A stretch of DNA of 64,000 nucleotides from Hyphomicrobium sp. (GTDB taxonomy: Bacteria; Pseudomonadota; Alphaproteobacteria; Rhizobiales; Hyphomicrobiaceae): the NCBI RefSeq assembly GCF_003987725.1, contig NZ_RXJH01000005.1; one strand, given 5' to 3'. This document shows, in pieces, positions 8,537 to 15,035 of this stretch. The position numbers and the translations under genes were made by a program. Under the pieces are notes generated by a model. It made no database searches and was not told where the DNA came from. It saw only the letters and a list, made by a program, of their open reading frames with translations. Position 1 is the stretch's first letter. Every line of letters begins with the position of its first letter.

Positions 8537-8758
8537 ATGAAGCAGGAAGATCTTATCGTCACCTCGCCGTTGAGCAGAGAACTCGATGTCGGCAACCAAC
8601 ATCTCGTTATCAGCGTCTTCAGAGGTGCTTTCGAGGATGACGACTGGTTCTTCGAAGTAATCGACAGCAACGGACACGCCGACATCTCTCAGCAGATGTA
8701 TTCATCTGACCAAGCGGCACTCGAAGCTGCTTTGCAGGCGATCCAATCGCGTGGCTAG
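8537..8758 (+). CDS. Small acidic hypothetical protein
   Basis: MKQEDLIVTSPLSR...DWFFEVID; GGAG RBS; no family recognised. Confidence 0.6.
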   Translation: MKQEDLIVTSPLSRELDVGNQHLVISVFRGAFEDDDWFFEVIDSNGHADISQQMYSSDQAALEAALQAIQSRG

Positions 8759-8893
8759 ATAGCAAAGACATCGCTGGCTAAGAGCGCTTTATTCGCTGTA
8801 GAAAGCATGAAGTAAGCCCGGAGCGCGTGCGAAAGCGCGGCTGACCGGCTTTCCCTCGCGCCCTGACAACACCGAAACAATCCGAGTCTCACA

Positions 8894-9811
8894 TTGCTGA
8901 AAGCCTGGACCCTCCGCCTCCACCGATGGTTGGCGCTCACCTTTGCATTGCCCTTGCTGATCGTCTTTTTGACTGGCCTCATCCTGGCCTTCGAGCCCGC
9001 GATTGTGGCTTCGACGCTCAAACCTAACGTGGTCGACGCGGCCCAGATCGAAGCGGCTCTCGCCAAGCATGATCCGGAAGGCACGGTAGAACGCATCTTC
9101 GTTCATGCCCCTCTCGGCACGCTCGTTCTCGGCGACCGTGGCGGTCCGGAAATCGATCTTGCAACCGGCGAGCAGGCCAACCCGCCGAGCACCTCACTCG
9201 CCGTGTATGCGCTGGCGCGCCGGATTCACAAAACATTGCTGCTCGACGGCGATTGGGGCGTGACGATCTCCACCATCGCGATGCTCTTTCTGGTTGTGAT
9301 CGGGCTCGTCATGGGTATCAGACCATTACGCAACACTGTCAGCGGCTGGCATACGGCAGCCGCTTGGGGCACCCTGCCGCTCATCCTTATCGCACCGCTC
9401 ACCGGACTGGCGATGGTCTACAAGGTGACGTTTTCCGGGCCGGAACCGCTCGTTGCGGCCGACGCCGCGCCGCGCTCGATCATGGAAGCGGTGCGCATCG
9501 TTGCGCGCGAACGGGATCTGGCGACGCTCTTGAGCCTGCGCCTGAGAAAAAACGGTATCGAAGCACGCCTCATCGAAGACGGCGAATATCGCAATTATGC
9601 TGTTTCGACTGCCGGTCTCGTCGACAAGCCGCGGAATTGGCCGAAATTGCTTCATGAAGGCAACTGGGCAGGCGTTTGGTCGGCTTCAGCCAATGCGGCG
9701 ACTTCGCTTGTCCTGACGCTGTTGCTTTCGACGGGACTTCTCATGTGGGCGCGACGCCGCCTGAGACGCCGCCGGAATTCACGCGACCTCGCGAAATTAT
9801 CCCGGATTTGA
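8894..9811 (+). CDS. PepSY-associated TM helix domain protein
   Basis: LHRWLAL...TGL N-terminal motif, internal RRIHKTLL, C-terminal KLLHEG. Confidence 0.85.
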   Translation: MLKAWTLRLHRWLALTFALPLLIVFLTGLILAFEPAIVASTLKPNVVDAAQIEAALAKHDPEGTVERIFVHAPLGTLVLGDRGGPEIDLATGEQANPPSTSLAVYALARRIHKTLLLDGDWGVTISTIAMLFLVVIGLVMGIRPLRNTVSGWHTAAAWGTLPLILIAPLTGLAMVYKVTFSGPEPLVAADAAPRSIMEAVRIVARERDLATLLSLRLRKNGIEARLIEDGEYRNYAVSTAGLVDKPRNWPKLLHEGNWAGVWSASANAATSLVLTLLLSTGLLMWARRRLRRRRNSRDLAKLSRI

Positions 9812-9968
9812 CGGGAAGAATTCCCCGCCAATTGATCAGCACACATGCACATGTGTGATGGTTTTGCGTCACCGCCATCCAAATGTTTCGTTTTTTTGTA
9901 TACATTATTGTAAGCTTGTATTCGGCATGATGTTTACCCCTCAGAATTTTTTCTTGAGGGGAAACGGA

Positions 9969-12287
9969 ATGACTCGGGACGTGCGTGTTCACTCGGCGTT
10001 TGCAGCGTTGGCCCTCGCAGGCTCCTTCACGATCGCCAGTGCACAAGAAGAAGGAACGGCACTGCCACCGGTCACGGTAACGGCCACCGAGCAAGCAAAG
10101 ATCACCAAGAAAGCCGCAAGCAAAAAGCCAAAGGCGCCTCAAAGCGCTCCATCTTCGCCTCCGGAAGCACAAGCGGCGACACCATCTTTTTCCGAGTCTG
10201 CGACTTCGCCCGTTGCTTCCGGCAACGCAATCGGCAATGCCGCGATCGACGCGCTCGCGCTCCGGTCCGCGGCCCCCAACGCCACCGTCGTGATCGAGGG
10301 CGCCCAGCTTCAGCAATACAATAGCTTGAGCATAGGCGACGCCGTGCGGCGCCTTCCGGGCGTGACGTTCCCTGGCGTCAATCGCTCGCGCGATATCAAG
10401 CTGCGCGGCATAGGCAAGGAATACACGCAGGTCTTGCTCGACGGCCGTCCGCTCATCGACGGCGATTCCAGCCGCAGCATGGAAGTCGACCGCATTCCCG
10501 CAACCTTCATCGAGCGGATTGAAATAACGCGCAGCCCCCTGGCCAGCATGCGTTCAGAGGGTGCCGCCGGCACCGTGAACATCATAACGCGCCGCGACTT
10601 CGGCCAATCGGGCGGACAGGTAACGATCGGCACCGGCTACGTCGAAGGCAACGGCACACCCGGCGAATTTTCGGCCTGGAATGGCGGACAAGTCGGTGCG
10701 CTTCGCTATTTCATCGGTGGCGGGTATCAGCGCCGTCTGGTTCAGGAAAGCTCGAACGAGTTCGTTTTCACCACGAACGGGACGACGCCCAGGGGCGGCA
10801 ACCTCATCGACCAGCATCGGAAGTTCGACGAATATACGTTCCTGTCCCGCTTCGAACTCGCGATCGACCCCGCCAACACGATCGTTTTCTCACCGACCTA
10901 TCTTCGTACAGACGAGTTCCGCGACCAGCACACGCTCCGGCTCAACAACAATCAAGCTTCAGCCAATCGCGATACGCATGAAATTCGCAACCGCATCCGC
11001 GAAACGTACGGCAGCTATCTTGAATGGCAGCACGCATTCAGCGGGGTTTCGAGCTCAAGCGTCTTCTTCGATTACCAGCGCGGACGCGAGGACACGACCC
11101 GAAAATCCACGCAAACGAGTCTGCCGGGCGGCTCGCCCGTCGTGCAGGCGCCGCGCTTCGTTCCCATTGATCTGGAACGCATCGCGTCCGGCGGCTCGGT
11201 CACGACGCGCGTCCGCGGCCATGAACTCGAAGCAGGAATTGGCTGGGCGCAGACGCAGCGGGCCGAGAACGAGGTGCGCGGCCTGACCAACGTCCCGCTT
11301 CCGGAGCGCAACTACGAGATCAGCGAAGCGATTTATCACGCCTACGTCAGCGACGCGTTTTCCGTTTTCGGCCATGACAAGCTGACGCTCGGCCTGCGGT
11401 TCGAGTACAGCATCACCGAAACGATAGATTTTGCGAAGAACCGTTTCGACAACGACTCACCGGACCTCAATCCGTCCATCCAATACAAGCTCGCGGTGGC
11501 TCCAGACCTCGATTTCAGGCTGGGCGTCGCCCGGACGCTGCGTCGTCCCGACTTGCGTGATCTGACGCCGACCATCGTTACCGGCAGCGGATCGATTGCC
11601 GATCCGGATCAGCGGGGCAATCCCGACACGTCGCCCGAGAAGATCTGGGGCTTGGATGTCGGCACCGATTTCTTCCTCTTCCAGCGATCAGGGCTTTTGT
11701 CGGCCAATCTCTTTGCGCGTTCTTTCGAGGACAAGATCGAGAGAACCCTGACCCAGGAAGGTGCCCGCTGGGTTTCGACGCCGCGCAACGCTGGCGACGG
11801 CGAACTCTACGGCGTGGAACTCGAAGGCCGGCTGCCGATGCAAATGATCGGACTTCCGGATCTGACGCTTTGGGCCAATGGAACAGCGATGAAGTCGGAA
11901 TTGACCGATCAGCAGACGGGGCAGACTCGCCGCTTTGCCGAGCAACCGGATCTGATCACGAACGTCGGCGCCGACTATTACGTGCGAGCATGGGCGACCA
12001 CATTCGGATTGGGCTACAATCGCACTTACGCCTACGATCAAAACATCGAGCTCGTGAACGGAACCTTCCAGCATACGAGCTTCTCGAATCTCGATCGCTT
12101 GGATGCTTCGGTCCGCATCTCGGTCGATGAGCACGCCGTTCTGACGTTATCGGCCAGCAACCTGCTTCGCGCCGACGACGATCGCACGCTGACGACGCGC
12201 AATTCTGCCGGGACAATCACGGGGCGGACTCACAGCATCGAGCCGTCGCCTTCGGTCTACTACGCGCGCCTGTCGTACGGCTGGTAA
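9969..12287 (+). CDS. TonB-dependent outer-membrane receptor
   Basis: Signal peptide, TonB-box-like LPPVTVTA, plug motif IERIEITRSP...GTVNIIT, GNPDxxPE, C-terminal aromatic residue. Confidence 0.92.
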   Translation: MTRDVRVHSAFAALALAGSFTIASAQEEGTALPPVTVTATEQAKITKKAASKKPKAPQSAPSSPPEAQAATPSFSESATSPVASGNAIGNAAIDALALRSAAPNATVVIEGAQLQQYNSLSIGDAVRRLPGVTFPGVNRSRDIKLRGIGKEYTQVLLDGRPLIDGDSSRSMEVDRIPATFIERIEITRSPLASMRSEGAAGTVNIITRRDFGQSGGQVTIGTGYVEGNGTPGEFSAWNGGQVGALRYFIGGGYQRRLVQESSNEFVFTTNGTTPRGGNLIDQHRKFDEYTFLSRFELAIDPANTIVFSPTYLRTDEFRDQHTLRLNNNQASANRDTHEIRNRIRETYGSYLEWQHAFSGVSSSSVFFDYQRGREDTTRKSTQTSLPGGSPVVQAPRFVPIDLERIASGGSVTTRVRGHELEAGIGWAQTQRAENEVRGLTNVPLPERNYEISEAIYHAYVSDAFSVFGHDKLTLGLRFEYSITETIDFAKNRFDNDSPDLNPSIQYKLAVAPDLDFRLGVARTLRRPDLRDLTPTIVTGSGSIADPDQRGNPDTSPEKIWGLDVGTDFFLFQRSGLLSANLFARSFEDKIERTLTQEGARWVSTPRNAGDGELYGVELEGRLPMQMIGLPDLTLWANGTAMKSELTDQQTGQTRRFAEQPDLITNVGADYYVRAWATTFGLGYNRTYAYDQNIELVNGTFQHTSFSNLDRLDASVRISVDEHAVLTLSASNLLRADDDRTLTTRNSAGTITGRTHSIEPSPSVYYARLSYGW

Positions 12288-12315
12288 CAACAAGACGGCC
12301 AACGATGAGGCACAG

Positions 12316-12356
12316 AAAATTTGCGCACGGTCAGGAGATCGTGCGCAATTTTTTTT
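12316..12356 (+). terminator. Rho-independent terminator after the TBDR
   Basis: ttgcgcacg...cgtgcgcaa hairpin followed by a T run. Confidence 0.7.
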
Positions 12357-12593
12357 CCAAAGCGCTTTTCCACGAAGACATAAGCGAAATCGTCGCCTGC
12401 GTTGACGATTGCACGCGCCGAGCATGTCGTAGATCTGAGGATGTCGGAGACCGCGGGTCACGTCGCGCGCGCAATAAAGACCCGCAGCCGCACGCGCCTG
12501 CCCGGTCCTTCGAGCCTATGACGTGATCGCACCGGGAACACACCCGGCGCCAAATTCGCCCAAAGGTCGAATTCTCGAACTCATTAATTCTGG

Positions 12594-12668
12594 TGGTGAG
12601 CCCGGTTGGGATCGAACCAACGACCCTCTGATTAAAAGTCAGATGCTCTACCGCTGAGCTACGGGCCC
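12594..12668 (-). tRNA. tRNA-Lys(UUU), copy 1
   Basis: 75-nt cloverleaf GGGCCCG...CGGGCTCACCA, anticodon loop CTTTTAA, encoded CCA. Confidence 0.97.
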
Positions 12669-12743
12669 TTTCGCATCAATGACTTAGCAGTCGTACGAAG
12701 CCTTATTTTACGGGATCTGGCGGAGAAAGTCGCACGCTCCTGC

Positions 12744-13256
12744 TCAAAGCTCTTGAAGACCGAGTTCACCCATATACTCCCGGCCCTTGACGCTCAAAGA
12801 AAGATAATCAGGGCTAGATTTCACGCCATTCATGTACACTCCGGTGGCGGCTAAAGTCACTGTGACCAGCTCAGCATCGATGATCCGCTTCAACAAAATC
12901 ATCATCATGGGTGGCCACGGCAGGACTGCGTTTGGCTCCTGCTGGAAGAGATTGAACAGCACATCCATTTCGAGCTGCGAGTACTTGTCATGAAGGAAAC
13001 GGAGATTGGATTTGTAGAGGCGCAGACTCTTACGATCGATTTCGTCTCTGTCCGCTCGGCGATGACAGTTTGGACAAAGCGCTATCAGATTTTCGTACTC
13101 ATGGGTTTTGCATTTTGCCCACGGAATGATGTGGTGAACGTCCACCTCGATATATCGGCACGTCGGGATCGCACACCGGTGGCCCGCTTCGACCAAAACT
13201 CGCCGACGTAATTCGGCAGGAATCGGAGGTCTGCCTTCTTCGTCCGAGAAAGACAT
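12744..13256 (-). CDS. HNH endonuclease with a probable C-terminal winged-helix-like region
   Basis: CAIPTC...VHHII...NLIALCPNCH zinc-finger HNH motif. Confidence 0.88.
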   Translation of the reverse strand: MSFSDEEGRPPIPAELRRRVLVEAGHRCAIPTCRYIEVDVHHIIPWAKCKTHEYENLIALCPNCHRRADRDEIDRKSLRLYKSNLRFLHDKYSQLEMDVLFNLFQQEPNAVLPWPPMMMILLKRIIDAELVTVTLAATGVYMNGVKSSPDYLSLSVKGREYMGELGLQEL

Positions 13257-13457
13257 TGCTGATCGTCTCTTGCTGACGGGAGCGAGCGCGAAGCCTATAC
13301 GGCGTGTCGATTACCTACCGCGAAACGACCGAGGAAAATGATCATCTCAATCACGCGGGAAATCTGATTTTAGACCGTGCGACTTCCTGAAATTGATCCC
13401 CGGGCCACTTTTCTTCTTACGTTCCCTCACGAAAATCGCGCAACTCATTGAAATTGG

Positions 13458-13532
13458 TGGTGAGCCCGGTTGGGATCGAACCAACGACCCTCTGATTAAA
13501 AGTCAGATGCTCTACCGCTGAGCTACGGGCCC
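13458..13532 (-). tRNA. tRNA-Lys(UUU), copy 2
   Basis: Identical to copy 1. Confidence 0.97.
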
Positions 13533-13816
13533 TTTAACGCACCAAAATCAATAGCTTGGACGAAAACAATTCGTCCGGCGCCAGTCCGGCCCATGCCTTG
13601 CCGCACCCCCTCGAGGACTGCGGCGCGTCGCGCGCCGAAGCGAGCTTATAGAAACGGGGCTCGGAACCCGCAACCCTCATTCCACCAGCCCTTCTGGCGG
13701 ATAGTCGCAGCCCTGCACAAACGTGGGTGGCCCGGCCCCGGCTTGCGCGGTATATCACAGCCAAGACGCGGCCACCGCCCCTTGGCGCTCGTGACCGTCA
13801 GCAAACAGGAACTGCC

Positions 13817-14011
13817 ATGCCTGACCCAGAAGCCCTCGCCGAGATCGAGCAGCGCATCGCCATCATCCGCGACAACCTCCGCGAGCTCGTTGAACAGGCG
13901 GCCGGCTATTCAGGCGCTGCGGACGAAGAACTCAACTCCGACCGCATCGCCAATCAGCAGGCCCGGCTCGACGCCCTTCTGAAAGAGCGCGACGAGTTGC
14001 TCAAGCAATAG
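13817..14011 (+). CDS. Small coiled-coil hypothetical protein
   Basis: MPDPEALAEIEQRIAIIRDNLRELVEQAA...; AGGA RBS. Confidence 0.7.
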   Translation: MPDPEALAEIEQRIAIIRDNLRELVEQAAGYSGAADEELNSDRIANQQARLDALLKERDELLKQ

Positions 14012-14138
14012 CTCCCGCGCCTCGTCTCCATCCGCGTACGCTCCACGATAAATTCAGCATTCCAGCCATCCGCATCCCGCGCCGCGCTCTTCCCAGGCTA
14101 GCGGCGGGCTTGCGCTCCACCTTTGAAGCTTCACGAAC

Positions 14139-15035
14139 ATGCCCGATCGGCTGAAAGCCATTCTCCTGATGTGCACGGCGGTGACGCTGTTTGCCGCCCT
14201 GGACACGTCCGCCAAGTACCTCGTCATGAAGACGGGCATCCCGACGTCGGAGATCGTGTGGCTGCGCTTTCTCGGCCAGGTCCTTTGCATGGCGGCCGTG
14301 CTCGGCCCCGCCGCGATGCCGAAGCTCCTCAAAACCAACAGTCTCAATCTTCAGCTGACGCGGTCGTCGTTGATGCTGGCAACCACCATCTTCAACTTCA
14401 TCGCGGTGAAATATCTGCGGCTCGACCAGACGGTTTCCATCACCTTCCTGACGCCCCTCATCGTTGCGGCGCTCGCCGTACCGCTTCTTGGCGAGCACAT
14501 CGGCTGGCACCGGGCTGCAGCTATTTTCGTCGGCTTTCTCGGCGTTCTGATCGTCGTCCGGCCGGGCGTCTCGGCCGTGCATCCGGCCTTCATCGCCGCG
14601 TTTCTTTCGATGCTCGCCTATTCCCTGCTGATCATCGTCACGCGCCGCCTGACGATGCTGGACTCCTCGCTCGTAACGCTGTTCTGGGGAACGGTTGTCG
14701 GCAGCATCGCGGCCGCCCCGTTCGCGATCAGCCAATGGGTGTGGCCCGAGGGCGTATGGCCGTGGGTTCTACTGCTGGCGCTCGGCATGTTGGGCGGCGG
14801 CGGTCACTATCTCATCATCCAGGCGTACCGCTTCGCGCCGGTGTCCGTCGTGACGCCGTTCCTCTACTTCGAGCTGATCAGCATGATCACGCTGAGCTAC
14901 GTTGTCTTCGGCGATCAGCCGGATCGCTGGAGCTTCGTCGGTGCACTCGTCATCGTCGCGTCAGGTCTCTACCTGATCCATCGCGAACGCATCGCCCACC
15001 GCGAGAGCCTCATGACTCTTGAGCCTGTGGATTAG
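14139..15035 (+). CDS. DMT/EamA family transporter
   Basis: About 10 TM helices, two EamA repeats ([13 protein letters not shown]). Confidence 0.9.

Follow-up and report, generated by a model that had tools for sequence, protein, structure and literature searches.

A probable remnant of an integrase-less genomic islet between two identical tRNA-Lys genes in Hyphomicrobium sp.

Cis-mobilizable elements (CIMEs) keep both attachment sites, attL and attR, and have lost the integration genes (PMC5704250), and in phage T6 the nuclease SegB drives the tandem amplification of tRNA-Tyr together with segB in 718-bp repeats (PMC13096335). Against this background we analysed a locus of Hyphomicrobium sp. 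(assembly GCF_003987725.1, contig NZ_RXJH01000005.1) in which two identical genes for tRNA-Lys(UUU) enclose a single gene for a putative HNH endonuclease. The whole stretch of 64,000 nt that was analysed is called the window here, and all positions are window coordinates; loci and public sequencing runs used for comparison are cited by label (L081, X1 and so on). We contend that this sandwich of tRNA, nuclease gene and tRNA is probably a recombination scar, the remnant of a minimal, integrase-less, CIME-like genomic islet at tRNA-Lys.

With tRNA islands and CIMEs (PMC5704250) the locus shares an insert 3' of a tRNA, at a synteny breakpoint and genus hot spot, direct repeats of tRNA sequence, low-GC (guanine plus cytosine) cargo, variability between strains and the lack of integration genes, and a homolog of its nuclease gene resides in a half-decayed tRNA-Arg islet (L039). 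It differs from them in that the repeat is a whole tRNA with diverged flanks (~110 nt) instead of a 20-50-nt 3' fragment, and in that the cargo is a single 513-bp gene for which no integrase-bearing parent was found. Of the features by which a tRNA-integrated island is recognised, the tRNA-derived direct repeats are present, in the atypical form of a whole tRNA, as are absence from close relatives and atypical composition, and the integrase is lacking. With regard to a CIME, repeats that may be att sites are present and the integrase is absent, and the parent element would be a putative one. The parts of the locus are as follows.

13458-13532, minus strand: tRNA-Lys(UUU) copy A (ARAGORN, Rfam), with the resident 5' flank retained and syntenic with all relatives
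12594-12668, minus strand: tRNA-Lys(UUU) copy B (ARAGORN, Rfam), identical in sequence to copy A, with the resident 3' flank retained
12591-12671 and its partner 13455-13535: perfect direct repeat of 81 bp, the tRNA plus 3 nt on each side
12578-12593, minus strand: 16-nt trailer after the CCA of copy B, ccagaattaatgagtt, a genus-wide motif
13442-13457, minus strand: trailer after copy A, ccaatttcaatgagtt, the partner of the copy B trailer
12516-12551, minus strand: stretch of the ancestral spacer on the tRNA's 3' side, collinear with the 3' flank in L086, which places copy B on resident DNA
12669-12687, minus strand: remnant of the 5' flank of a tRNA-Lys from a different Hyphomicrobium lineage, reading ctaagtcattgat...gcgaaa and gapped by 7 nt, which forms the right inner edge of the incoming DNA
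12744-13256, minus strand: HNH gene, 170 aa (Pfam HNH PF01844, E = 3.9e-10)
13257-13457, minus strand: leader of 201 nt from copy A to the HNH start codon, foreign and without homology to relatives
12669-13457, minus strand: foreign segment of 789 bp, which together with one tRNA copy makes up an 864-bp indel unit

The original prediction, made from the sequence alone, had described two identical and complete tRNA-Lys(UUU) genes in an 81-bp perfect repeat with one co-oriented HNH gene between them, and this was borne out by ARAGORN, Rfam, a repeat search and Pfam. Exactly two tRNA genes are found by ARAGORN in the window; both encode tRNA-Lys(UUU), lie on the minus strand and score 73.5 bits each against Rfam. 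The repeat reaches 94 nt at 96% identity (12578-12671 / 13442-13535) because the 16 nt past the encoded CCA are alike too. The HNH gene is the sole substantial open reading frame (ORF) between the copies; it has the same orientation as the tRNAs, its start being separated from copy A by 201 nt and its end from copy B by 75 nt. A 25-nt segment of this tRNA, for which 0 occurrences are expected by chance, is confined to the two copies, and the window has no additional partial tRNA-Lys repeats to indicate an island of greater extent.

The order of the locus exists physically and does not result from misassembly. In public runs compared over window 11800-14400, a unitig of 843 nt that leads from inside copy B to inside copy A (12642-13484) was present without differences in the independent runs X1 and X3, and in run X4 three pieces, likewise free of differences, together make up that span. 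The 81-bp repeat forms an 81-nt unitig of its own at about double depth in X1 and X3.

The two outer junctions were compared with the relative L086. The 5' flank of copy A aligns with it at a score of 225, against a shuffle maximum of 24, and in the DNA 3' of copy B offsets 43-78 past the CCA are collinear with offsets 43-76 of L086, with a score of 26 that exceeds all 300 shuffles. Copy A thus lies on the resident 5' flank and copy B on resident 3' DNA. The inner flanks of the insert read gctaagtcattgatgcgaaa and ccaatttcaatgagttgcgcg. Directly after copy A there is a second version of the genus-wide trailer motif, of which ~17 nt past the tRNA-Lys CCA (ccaNaatcaatNggttag) are kept in L081, L085, L086, L133, L135 and L136 and beyond which the genomes differ; this conserved trailer may serve in processing or represent an att core. 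The two 16-nt trailers in the window have four mismatches, and the 5' flank of copy B departs from that of copy A by a 7-nt gap and three changes. The 13-mer ctaagtcattgat just upstream of copy B shows no difference from L133 and agrees with L085 and L135 at 12/13 positions, the host-type 5' flank (copy A, L086) reading ccaagctattgat, and at all three diagnostic positions the copy B flank has the state of the L133/L085/L135 type. Judged by these alignments, the inner flanks resemble a tRNA-Lys locus of another Hyphomicrobium lineage and not that of the host, and the incoming DNA would therefore have comprised ~110 nt of an other-lineage tRNA-Lys locus and ~750 bp of 51%-GC DNA. The GC content is 51.2% in the foreign segment and 51.5% in the HNH ORF but 59-63% in the flanks; it is low throughout the spacer between the tRNAs, for which no relative has a homologous sequence.

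The EamA transporter encoded nearby shares 88% identity with its counterpart in Hyphomicrobium sp. 99, which places the window in Hyphomicrobium. The right-hand neighbourhood (a 64-aa ORF, EamA, tgt and queA) recurs with one tRNA-Lys(UUU) in seven related genomes (L081/L082, L085, L086, L133, L135 and L136/L137; ~78-94% nucleotide identity), and the expectation that relatives would have a single tRNA-Lys at this locus was upheld both by these genomes and by four runs with an empty-site sister strain. The tRNA-Lys sequence is the same in six of the seven genomes, and the perfect identity between the copies in the window is therefore a poor guide to their age. Synteny with L081, L085 and L086 begins 1-15 nt 3' of copy A (13443-13457) and runs rightwards, and the genes 3' of tRNA-Lys differ in every genome compared, which makes this tRNA-Lys a hot spot. 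Its use for integration is ordinary, since in this group it is a classical att site. In viral contigs the exact tRNA-Lys sequence gave no match at full length and one match for its 3' 32 nt; one viral contig (L132) ends in a partial tRNA-Lys of ~48 nt. Scans of metagenomes with the left junction gave 0 matches and with the right junction one relative, L086.

Two further observations concern the surroundings of tRNA-Lys in these relatives. In L085 (900-1640) a RhuM-family gene and a P4-like integrase fragment (...EREIWTVPAERMKAGKEHTV...) come next after the tRNA-Lys and make up a decayed island at the same tRNA-Lys. Between copy A and the 64-aa ORF of the window, a block at ~13619-13690 (...gcgcgccgaagcgagcttatagaaacggggctc...) shows no difference in L086 and 1-3 changes in L081 and L085 within the 44 nt that were compared (13619-13662), its extension to 13690 having been judged by eye; the block has no Rfam match, and the DNA between it and copy A is variable.

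The public runs show the sandwich to be a strain-level indel of 864 bp. In X1 and X4 the insert has the depth of its flanks; in X3 its depth is about half that of the flanks, and the left flank occurs there as two alleles. Runs X8, X10, X12 and X13 contain both flanks at ~97-99% identity, at a depth of 3-11 and with a common set of single-nucleotide polymorphisms, and the insert at a depth of 0. One contig of X10 leads from the TonB-receptor flank through the copy B trailer into the whole tRNA (11827-12671), unchanged after 12318, and a contig of X12 leads from the 5' part of the tRNA into the 5' flank of copy A, so that the order in the sister clade is resident 5' flank, one tRNA, copy B trailer and left flank. 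The two clades thus differ by one 864-bp unit, which is 789 bp of foreign DNA plus one tRNA. As all outgroups are single-copy, outgroup parsimony makes a gain in the window's clade the parsimonious direction. A joint in X1 of position 12671 to 13664 was considered as a variant of this locus and rejected; it belongs to another Hyphomicrobium species and reflects the common tRNA and a 21-nt motif.

That this would be a small inserted islet without an integrase, as had been proposed, agrees with the searches made. No integrase lies between the tRNA copies, and tblastn with integrase fragments found no remnant of one in 12300-13900. Within ~8 kb leftwards none of the ORFs scanned with Pfam belongs to an integrase family, and on the right side the ~3.5 kb compared keep synteny with relatives, among whose genes there is none of an integrase family. 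A 16-nt inverted repeat (12724-12739 / 13373-13388) was considered as the ends of a miniature element and rejected, given that it matches at 14/16 positions, that about one such pair is expected by chance in 3 kb by our own estimate, and that nothing alike occurs at other loci.

A course of events that would give the observed order can be outlined. The foreign DNA would have carried the HNH and winged-helix gene beside its own Hyphomicrobium-type tRNA-Lys, with ~20 nt of 5' flank and a 16-nt 3' trailer. A single crossover within the common tRNA sequence, between this DNA and the resident tRNA-Lys (Campbell-type integration), would have produced the order resident 5' flank, tRNA A, foreign trailer, HNH gene, remnant of the foreign 5' flank, tRNA B and resident 3' flank, and because such a crossover falls inside the tRNA, both tRNA genes would have come out whole. 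The most likely actor may have been a tyrosine integrase, either of a tRNA-Lys-specific element since stripped of its genes or acting in trans; host homologous recombination across the 81-bp identity would be a less likely one. Recombination between the 81-bp repeats could later lead to loss of the insert. Kept att sites and lost integration genes would make the islet CIME-like.

Several points weigh against this reconstruction. No integrase, integrase remnant or recognisable att core was found in or near the insert, and any part that an integrase played is purely inferential. In classical tRNA islands the duplication is confined to the 3' part of the gene (28 nt in L039, ~48 nt in L132), and a whole-tRNA duplication is therefore as atypical as the original prediction had said. 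A donor with a whole tRNA-Lys and its flanks was not found, and the HNH protein of the window is unique to its strain cluster, the nearest homolog being 70% identical. A gain followed by loss in the sister clade, eased by the 81-bp repeats, is conceivable, and the empty-site join is deduced from unitigs that break inside the tRNA and not from one molecule. What is new here would be a decayed tRNA-site islet with duplication of the whole tRNA gene, decayed tRNA islets themselves being known. The significance of the locus is modest; it offers a clean natural case of a tRNA hot spot that gained a second complete tRNA and a one-gene cargo, and the appearance of an islet after loss of all its mobility genes can help island-finding software, which looks for a partial tRNA repeat and an integrase.

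The cargo protein has a match to the HNH endonuclease superfamily PF01844 above the cutoff of that family, to which it can be assigned by sequence. In an alignment of 27 family members including the window protein, residues H41, H42, N56, H65, C28, C33, C61 and C64 are invariant, and the predicted catalytic and zinc-binding residues are intact. An AlphaFold2 model (predicted local distance difference test score 78.9) has an N-terminal HNH domain, and the top Foldseek matches in the PDB are MarR/PadR winged-helix proteins as well as the HNH domains of McrA, Cas9 and IscB, all of them weak (E 0.07-0.3, probability ~0.9). The MarR/PadR matches are in keeping with the winged helix-turn-helix-like C-terminal region that had been proposed for this protein, and the modelled C-terminal domain can be called winged-helix-like on weak but consistent evidence. 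Sequence searches of PHROGs, PADLOC, NCBIfam and the PDB match the HNH core only. This core matches EcoKMcrA (6ghc, E = 1.8e-5), a group II intron maturase (6me0) and IscB, and PADLOC gave no full-length defence match, its best hit (E = 8e-6) covering 26-33 residues of the core. With McrA-type, type IV and solitary HNH enzymes and the HNH domains of IscB, Cas9 and group II maturases, the protein shares the beta-beta-alpha-metal core and a Cys4 zinc site. The likeness is however limited to ~35-60 core residues, the window family has no methyltransferase, guide RNA or partner gene, and the combination of a C-terminal winged helix with a 170-aa architecture matches no characterised enzyme. The protein is probably a DNA-binding nuclease with a role in defence or a selfish one.

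The homologs found number more than 2,200, are 165-175 aa long, have 55-70% identity to the window protein and come from Alpha-, Beta- and Gammaproteobacteria, Planctomycetota, Verrucomicrobiota, Chloroflexota, Nitrospirales, Poribacteria, Actinomycetota and archaea, the nearest homologs not coming from the nearest taxa. The GC content of the ORF is lower than that of its flanks in 60 of 65 homolog loci, with a mean deficit of 8.8 points. Across the loci compared there is no conserved neighbour or partner gene, and there are no conserved element ends outside the ORF, DNA similarity between loci stopping at the ORF ends. The family is seen on four unrelated platforms. An IS1595-family transposase precedes the homolog in eight of 80 genome loci and in L090-L092; in L009 (1963-4799; also in L003, L002 and L090-L092) an IS1595-family element with 18-nt inverted repeats (GGCAATTATCACCTTGAC) encloses the transposase together with the HNH homolog, and in L009 also a 327-aa ORF without known function, so that the HNH gene is there an insertion-sequence passenger. 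In two betaproteobacterial metagenome-assembled genomes (MAGs; L036 2465-5647 and L057 583-6263) the homolog is one cassette among 6-7 attC-like repeats of 64-68 nt (yTAAC ... palindrome ... GTTrrry) that are spaced 338-2221 bp apart, in arrays that look like a chromosomal integron. In L088 (2364-2996) and L089 it stands beside Mu F, portal and terminase genes of a Mu-like prophage. In L039 (1872-4244) a 2.3-kb islet at tRNA-Arg(CCG) ends in a 28-bp repeat of the tRNA 3' end and contains a truncated P4-like integrase (165 aa), a 114-aa ORF, the HNH homolog and a 145-aa ORF; by analogy it may be regarded as a less decayed version of the window islet.

Six full-length copies of the family were found in IMG/VR contigs, none in 50,697 sequenced phage genomes (INPHARED), and only three weak partial matches on PLSDB plasmids. 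An exhaustive profile search returned 162 clusters at E <= 1e-30, many of them of ~310-335 aa and sharing only the N-terminal HNH module (residues 8-86), with other C-terminal domains, which suggests a modular nuclease superfamily with exchangeable DNA-recognition parts. The HNH and winged-helix gene is a single-gene cargo of unrelated mobile platforms. A tRNA lies within 3 kb in seven of 80 genome loci and within 300 nt in four of ~107 contexts, which is about chance level, and in none of the ~107 contexts are there tRNAs on both sides of the homolog. The tRNA-Lys link therefore belongs to this insertion and not to the HNH family, the tRNA location of the gene reflects its platform and not its function, and the association of homologs with tRNAs on which the original prediction had depended essentially failed to appear. 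The family is of wider interest as an uncharacterised group of more than 2,200 members that keeps 55-70% identity from Alphaproteobacteria to archaea on its four unrelated platforms, and such a solitary, low-GC, multi-platform profile is typical of compact defence or selfish nucleases.

Given that HNH is a classical homing-endonuclease fold and that the gene is sporadic between ~98%-identical strains, one possible explanation is an origin driven by the nuclease itself: a break made by the HNH protein at or near tRNA-Lys would have been repaired by copying in the HNH and tRNA unit (intron-less homing), or would have led to a local duplication of the tRNA, on the model of SegB in phage T6. Precedent is given by segB, which is GIY-YIG, and mobE in the phages T4 and T6 (PMC13096335; PMC2330249), where small nuclease ORFs likewise lie between or beside the tRNAs of phage clusters with a sporadic distribution, and the unit of tRNA and nuclease gene is of similar size (718 bp there and 864 bp here). 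Within the HNH family, the closest homolog with known context (P0004, 70% identical), in a Mu-like prophage, has a 90-nt tRNA-Ser(GGA)-like gene 46 nt downstream. SegB differs, however, in that it acts in lytic phages and has a statistically strong association with tRNAs, and the window family shows no such association and is absent from the sequenced phage genomes. Also, only the tRNA is duplicated in the window, and a single HNH copy means that no tandem amplification of the unit took place. The resident junctions (5' flank to tRNA and tRNA to 3' trailer) are intact and no target shorter than ~77 bp was destroyed, and therefore the usual self-immunity through target disruption is missing; neither disruption of its own target nor a recurrent insertion site, which characterise homing genes, is seen for the islet. 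The inner flanks further indicate a foreign tRNA-Lys locus and not a local duplication. With the junctions of the empty allele all regenerated and homologs at unrelated sites, classical homing, which had been one of the proposals, is unlikely, and a nuclease-driven origin in any form is in our view improbable.

The tandem tRNA-Lys could also be an old resident duplication into whose spacer the HNH gene landed later, the relatives and the sister clade having lost one copy. The diverged flanks of the two copies, in trailer and 5' flank alike, would fit such an age, and loss through recombination between identical tRNAs is easy. It would however require many independent losses, as all seven relatives at 78-94% identity have one copy. 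The copy B 5' flank is of the L133/L085/L135 type and not a degenerate host type, and the spacer, uniformly low in GC, is without homology in any relative. We hold this history to be quite unlikely.

Another possibility that had been raised is a functional operon of tRNA and nuclease, in which a defence nuclease is expressed from a tRNA transcript and the second tRNA-Lys(UUU) raises the dosage and buffers the cell against anticodon nucleases or toxins that target tRNA-Lys. The anticodon nuclease PrrC targets tRNA-Lys. Higher tRNA dosage can beat a tRNA-cleaving defence, as in phage T6 (PMC13096335), and relatives of the gene are integron cassettes, for which it has been shown that cassettes of unknown function in mobile integrons encode phage defence (bioRxiv 10.1101/2024.07.02.601719). 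Four runs labelled RNA contain contigs of 190-263 nt that are identical to the window (13010-13272, 13194-13412 in X25, 12704-12918 and 12737-12926), the flanks being at zero; together they cover 13412-13010 and 12926-12704, nearly the whole inter-tRNA spacer, with the 201-nt leader covered up to 13412. A consensus scan found no sigma-70-like promoter in the spacer, nor does Rfam find a structured RNA there besides the two tRNAs. These contigs suggest that the HNH gene is transcribed, with transcripts that span most of the spacer, and together with the lack of a promoter they would fit a read-through that leads from tRNA A in the direction of tRNA B, so that co-transcription of tRNA A, HNH gene and tRNA B is weakly suggested; they are four low-depth contigs and not reads, and DNA carry-over is possible. 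Against such an operon, the two tRNA copies are identical and thus equally cleavable, and no anticodon-nuclease, PrrC or HEPN gene is present among the ORFs scanned near the locus. The PADLOC matches concern the generic HNH core, and with no full-length model match and no conserved neighbour the locus does not correspond to a known anti-phage system. The family lacks a tRNA association, and very close strains live without the insert. As the gene has no known connection with anticodon nucleases or with the function of tRNA-Lys, the proposed defence gene with a spare tRNA-Lys is speculation, and we consider it very unlikely.

It can be speculated that the islet is instead a working, integrase-free mobile unit, in which a whole portable tRNA gene serves as the recombination site in the manner of attC and the HNH protein nicks or cuts to stimulate recombination with the resident gene, so that the HNH family would promote its own capture and retention on IS1595 elements, attC arrays and tRNA sites; to this idea we would likewise give very little credence. 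The locus does have in common with integron cassettes one promoter-poor ORF between directly repeated recombination sites, and homologs of the gene are true cassettes by the criterion of an ORF with an attC (RYYYAAC ... GTTRRRY) in L036 and L057. In the window, by contrast, the repeat is a tRNA gene and not an attC hairpin, and a 201-nt leader precedes the ORF; no attC-like repeat was found in 11500-14500, and no IntI or attI near the locus.

An assembly artefact, in the form of a collapsed or chimeric join at the tRNA repeat, can for practical purposes be dismissed, since against the breaking of short-read assemblies at tRNA-Lys (contigs L083 and L084 start or end there) stand the exact unitig in X1 and X3, the three pieces in X4 and the insert depth in X1 and X4. 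In L083, a contig of GCA_017306805.1 from a 98.7%-identical strain, positions 1-144 are unrelated to the window and join it at 13611, through a rearrangement or in a chimeric MAG contig.

In addition to the islet, the spacer 3' of tRNA-Lys holds a second insertion, a PepSY_TM and TonB-dependent receptor gene pair (8680-12370) that is absent there in L086 and L081. Arrival of this module together with the HNH gene was considered and is made unlikely by the empty-site strains, which keep the TonB flank, and by the presence of the module elsewhere without a tRNA. The pair has 86.6% nucleotide identity to Hyphomicrobium sp. ghe19 (L138 4715-8411), where it stands in another context without tRNA, and a third PepSY_TM/TonB homolog (P0394) lies among resolvase, ParB/RepB, ParA and HipA genes.

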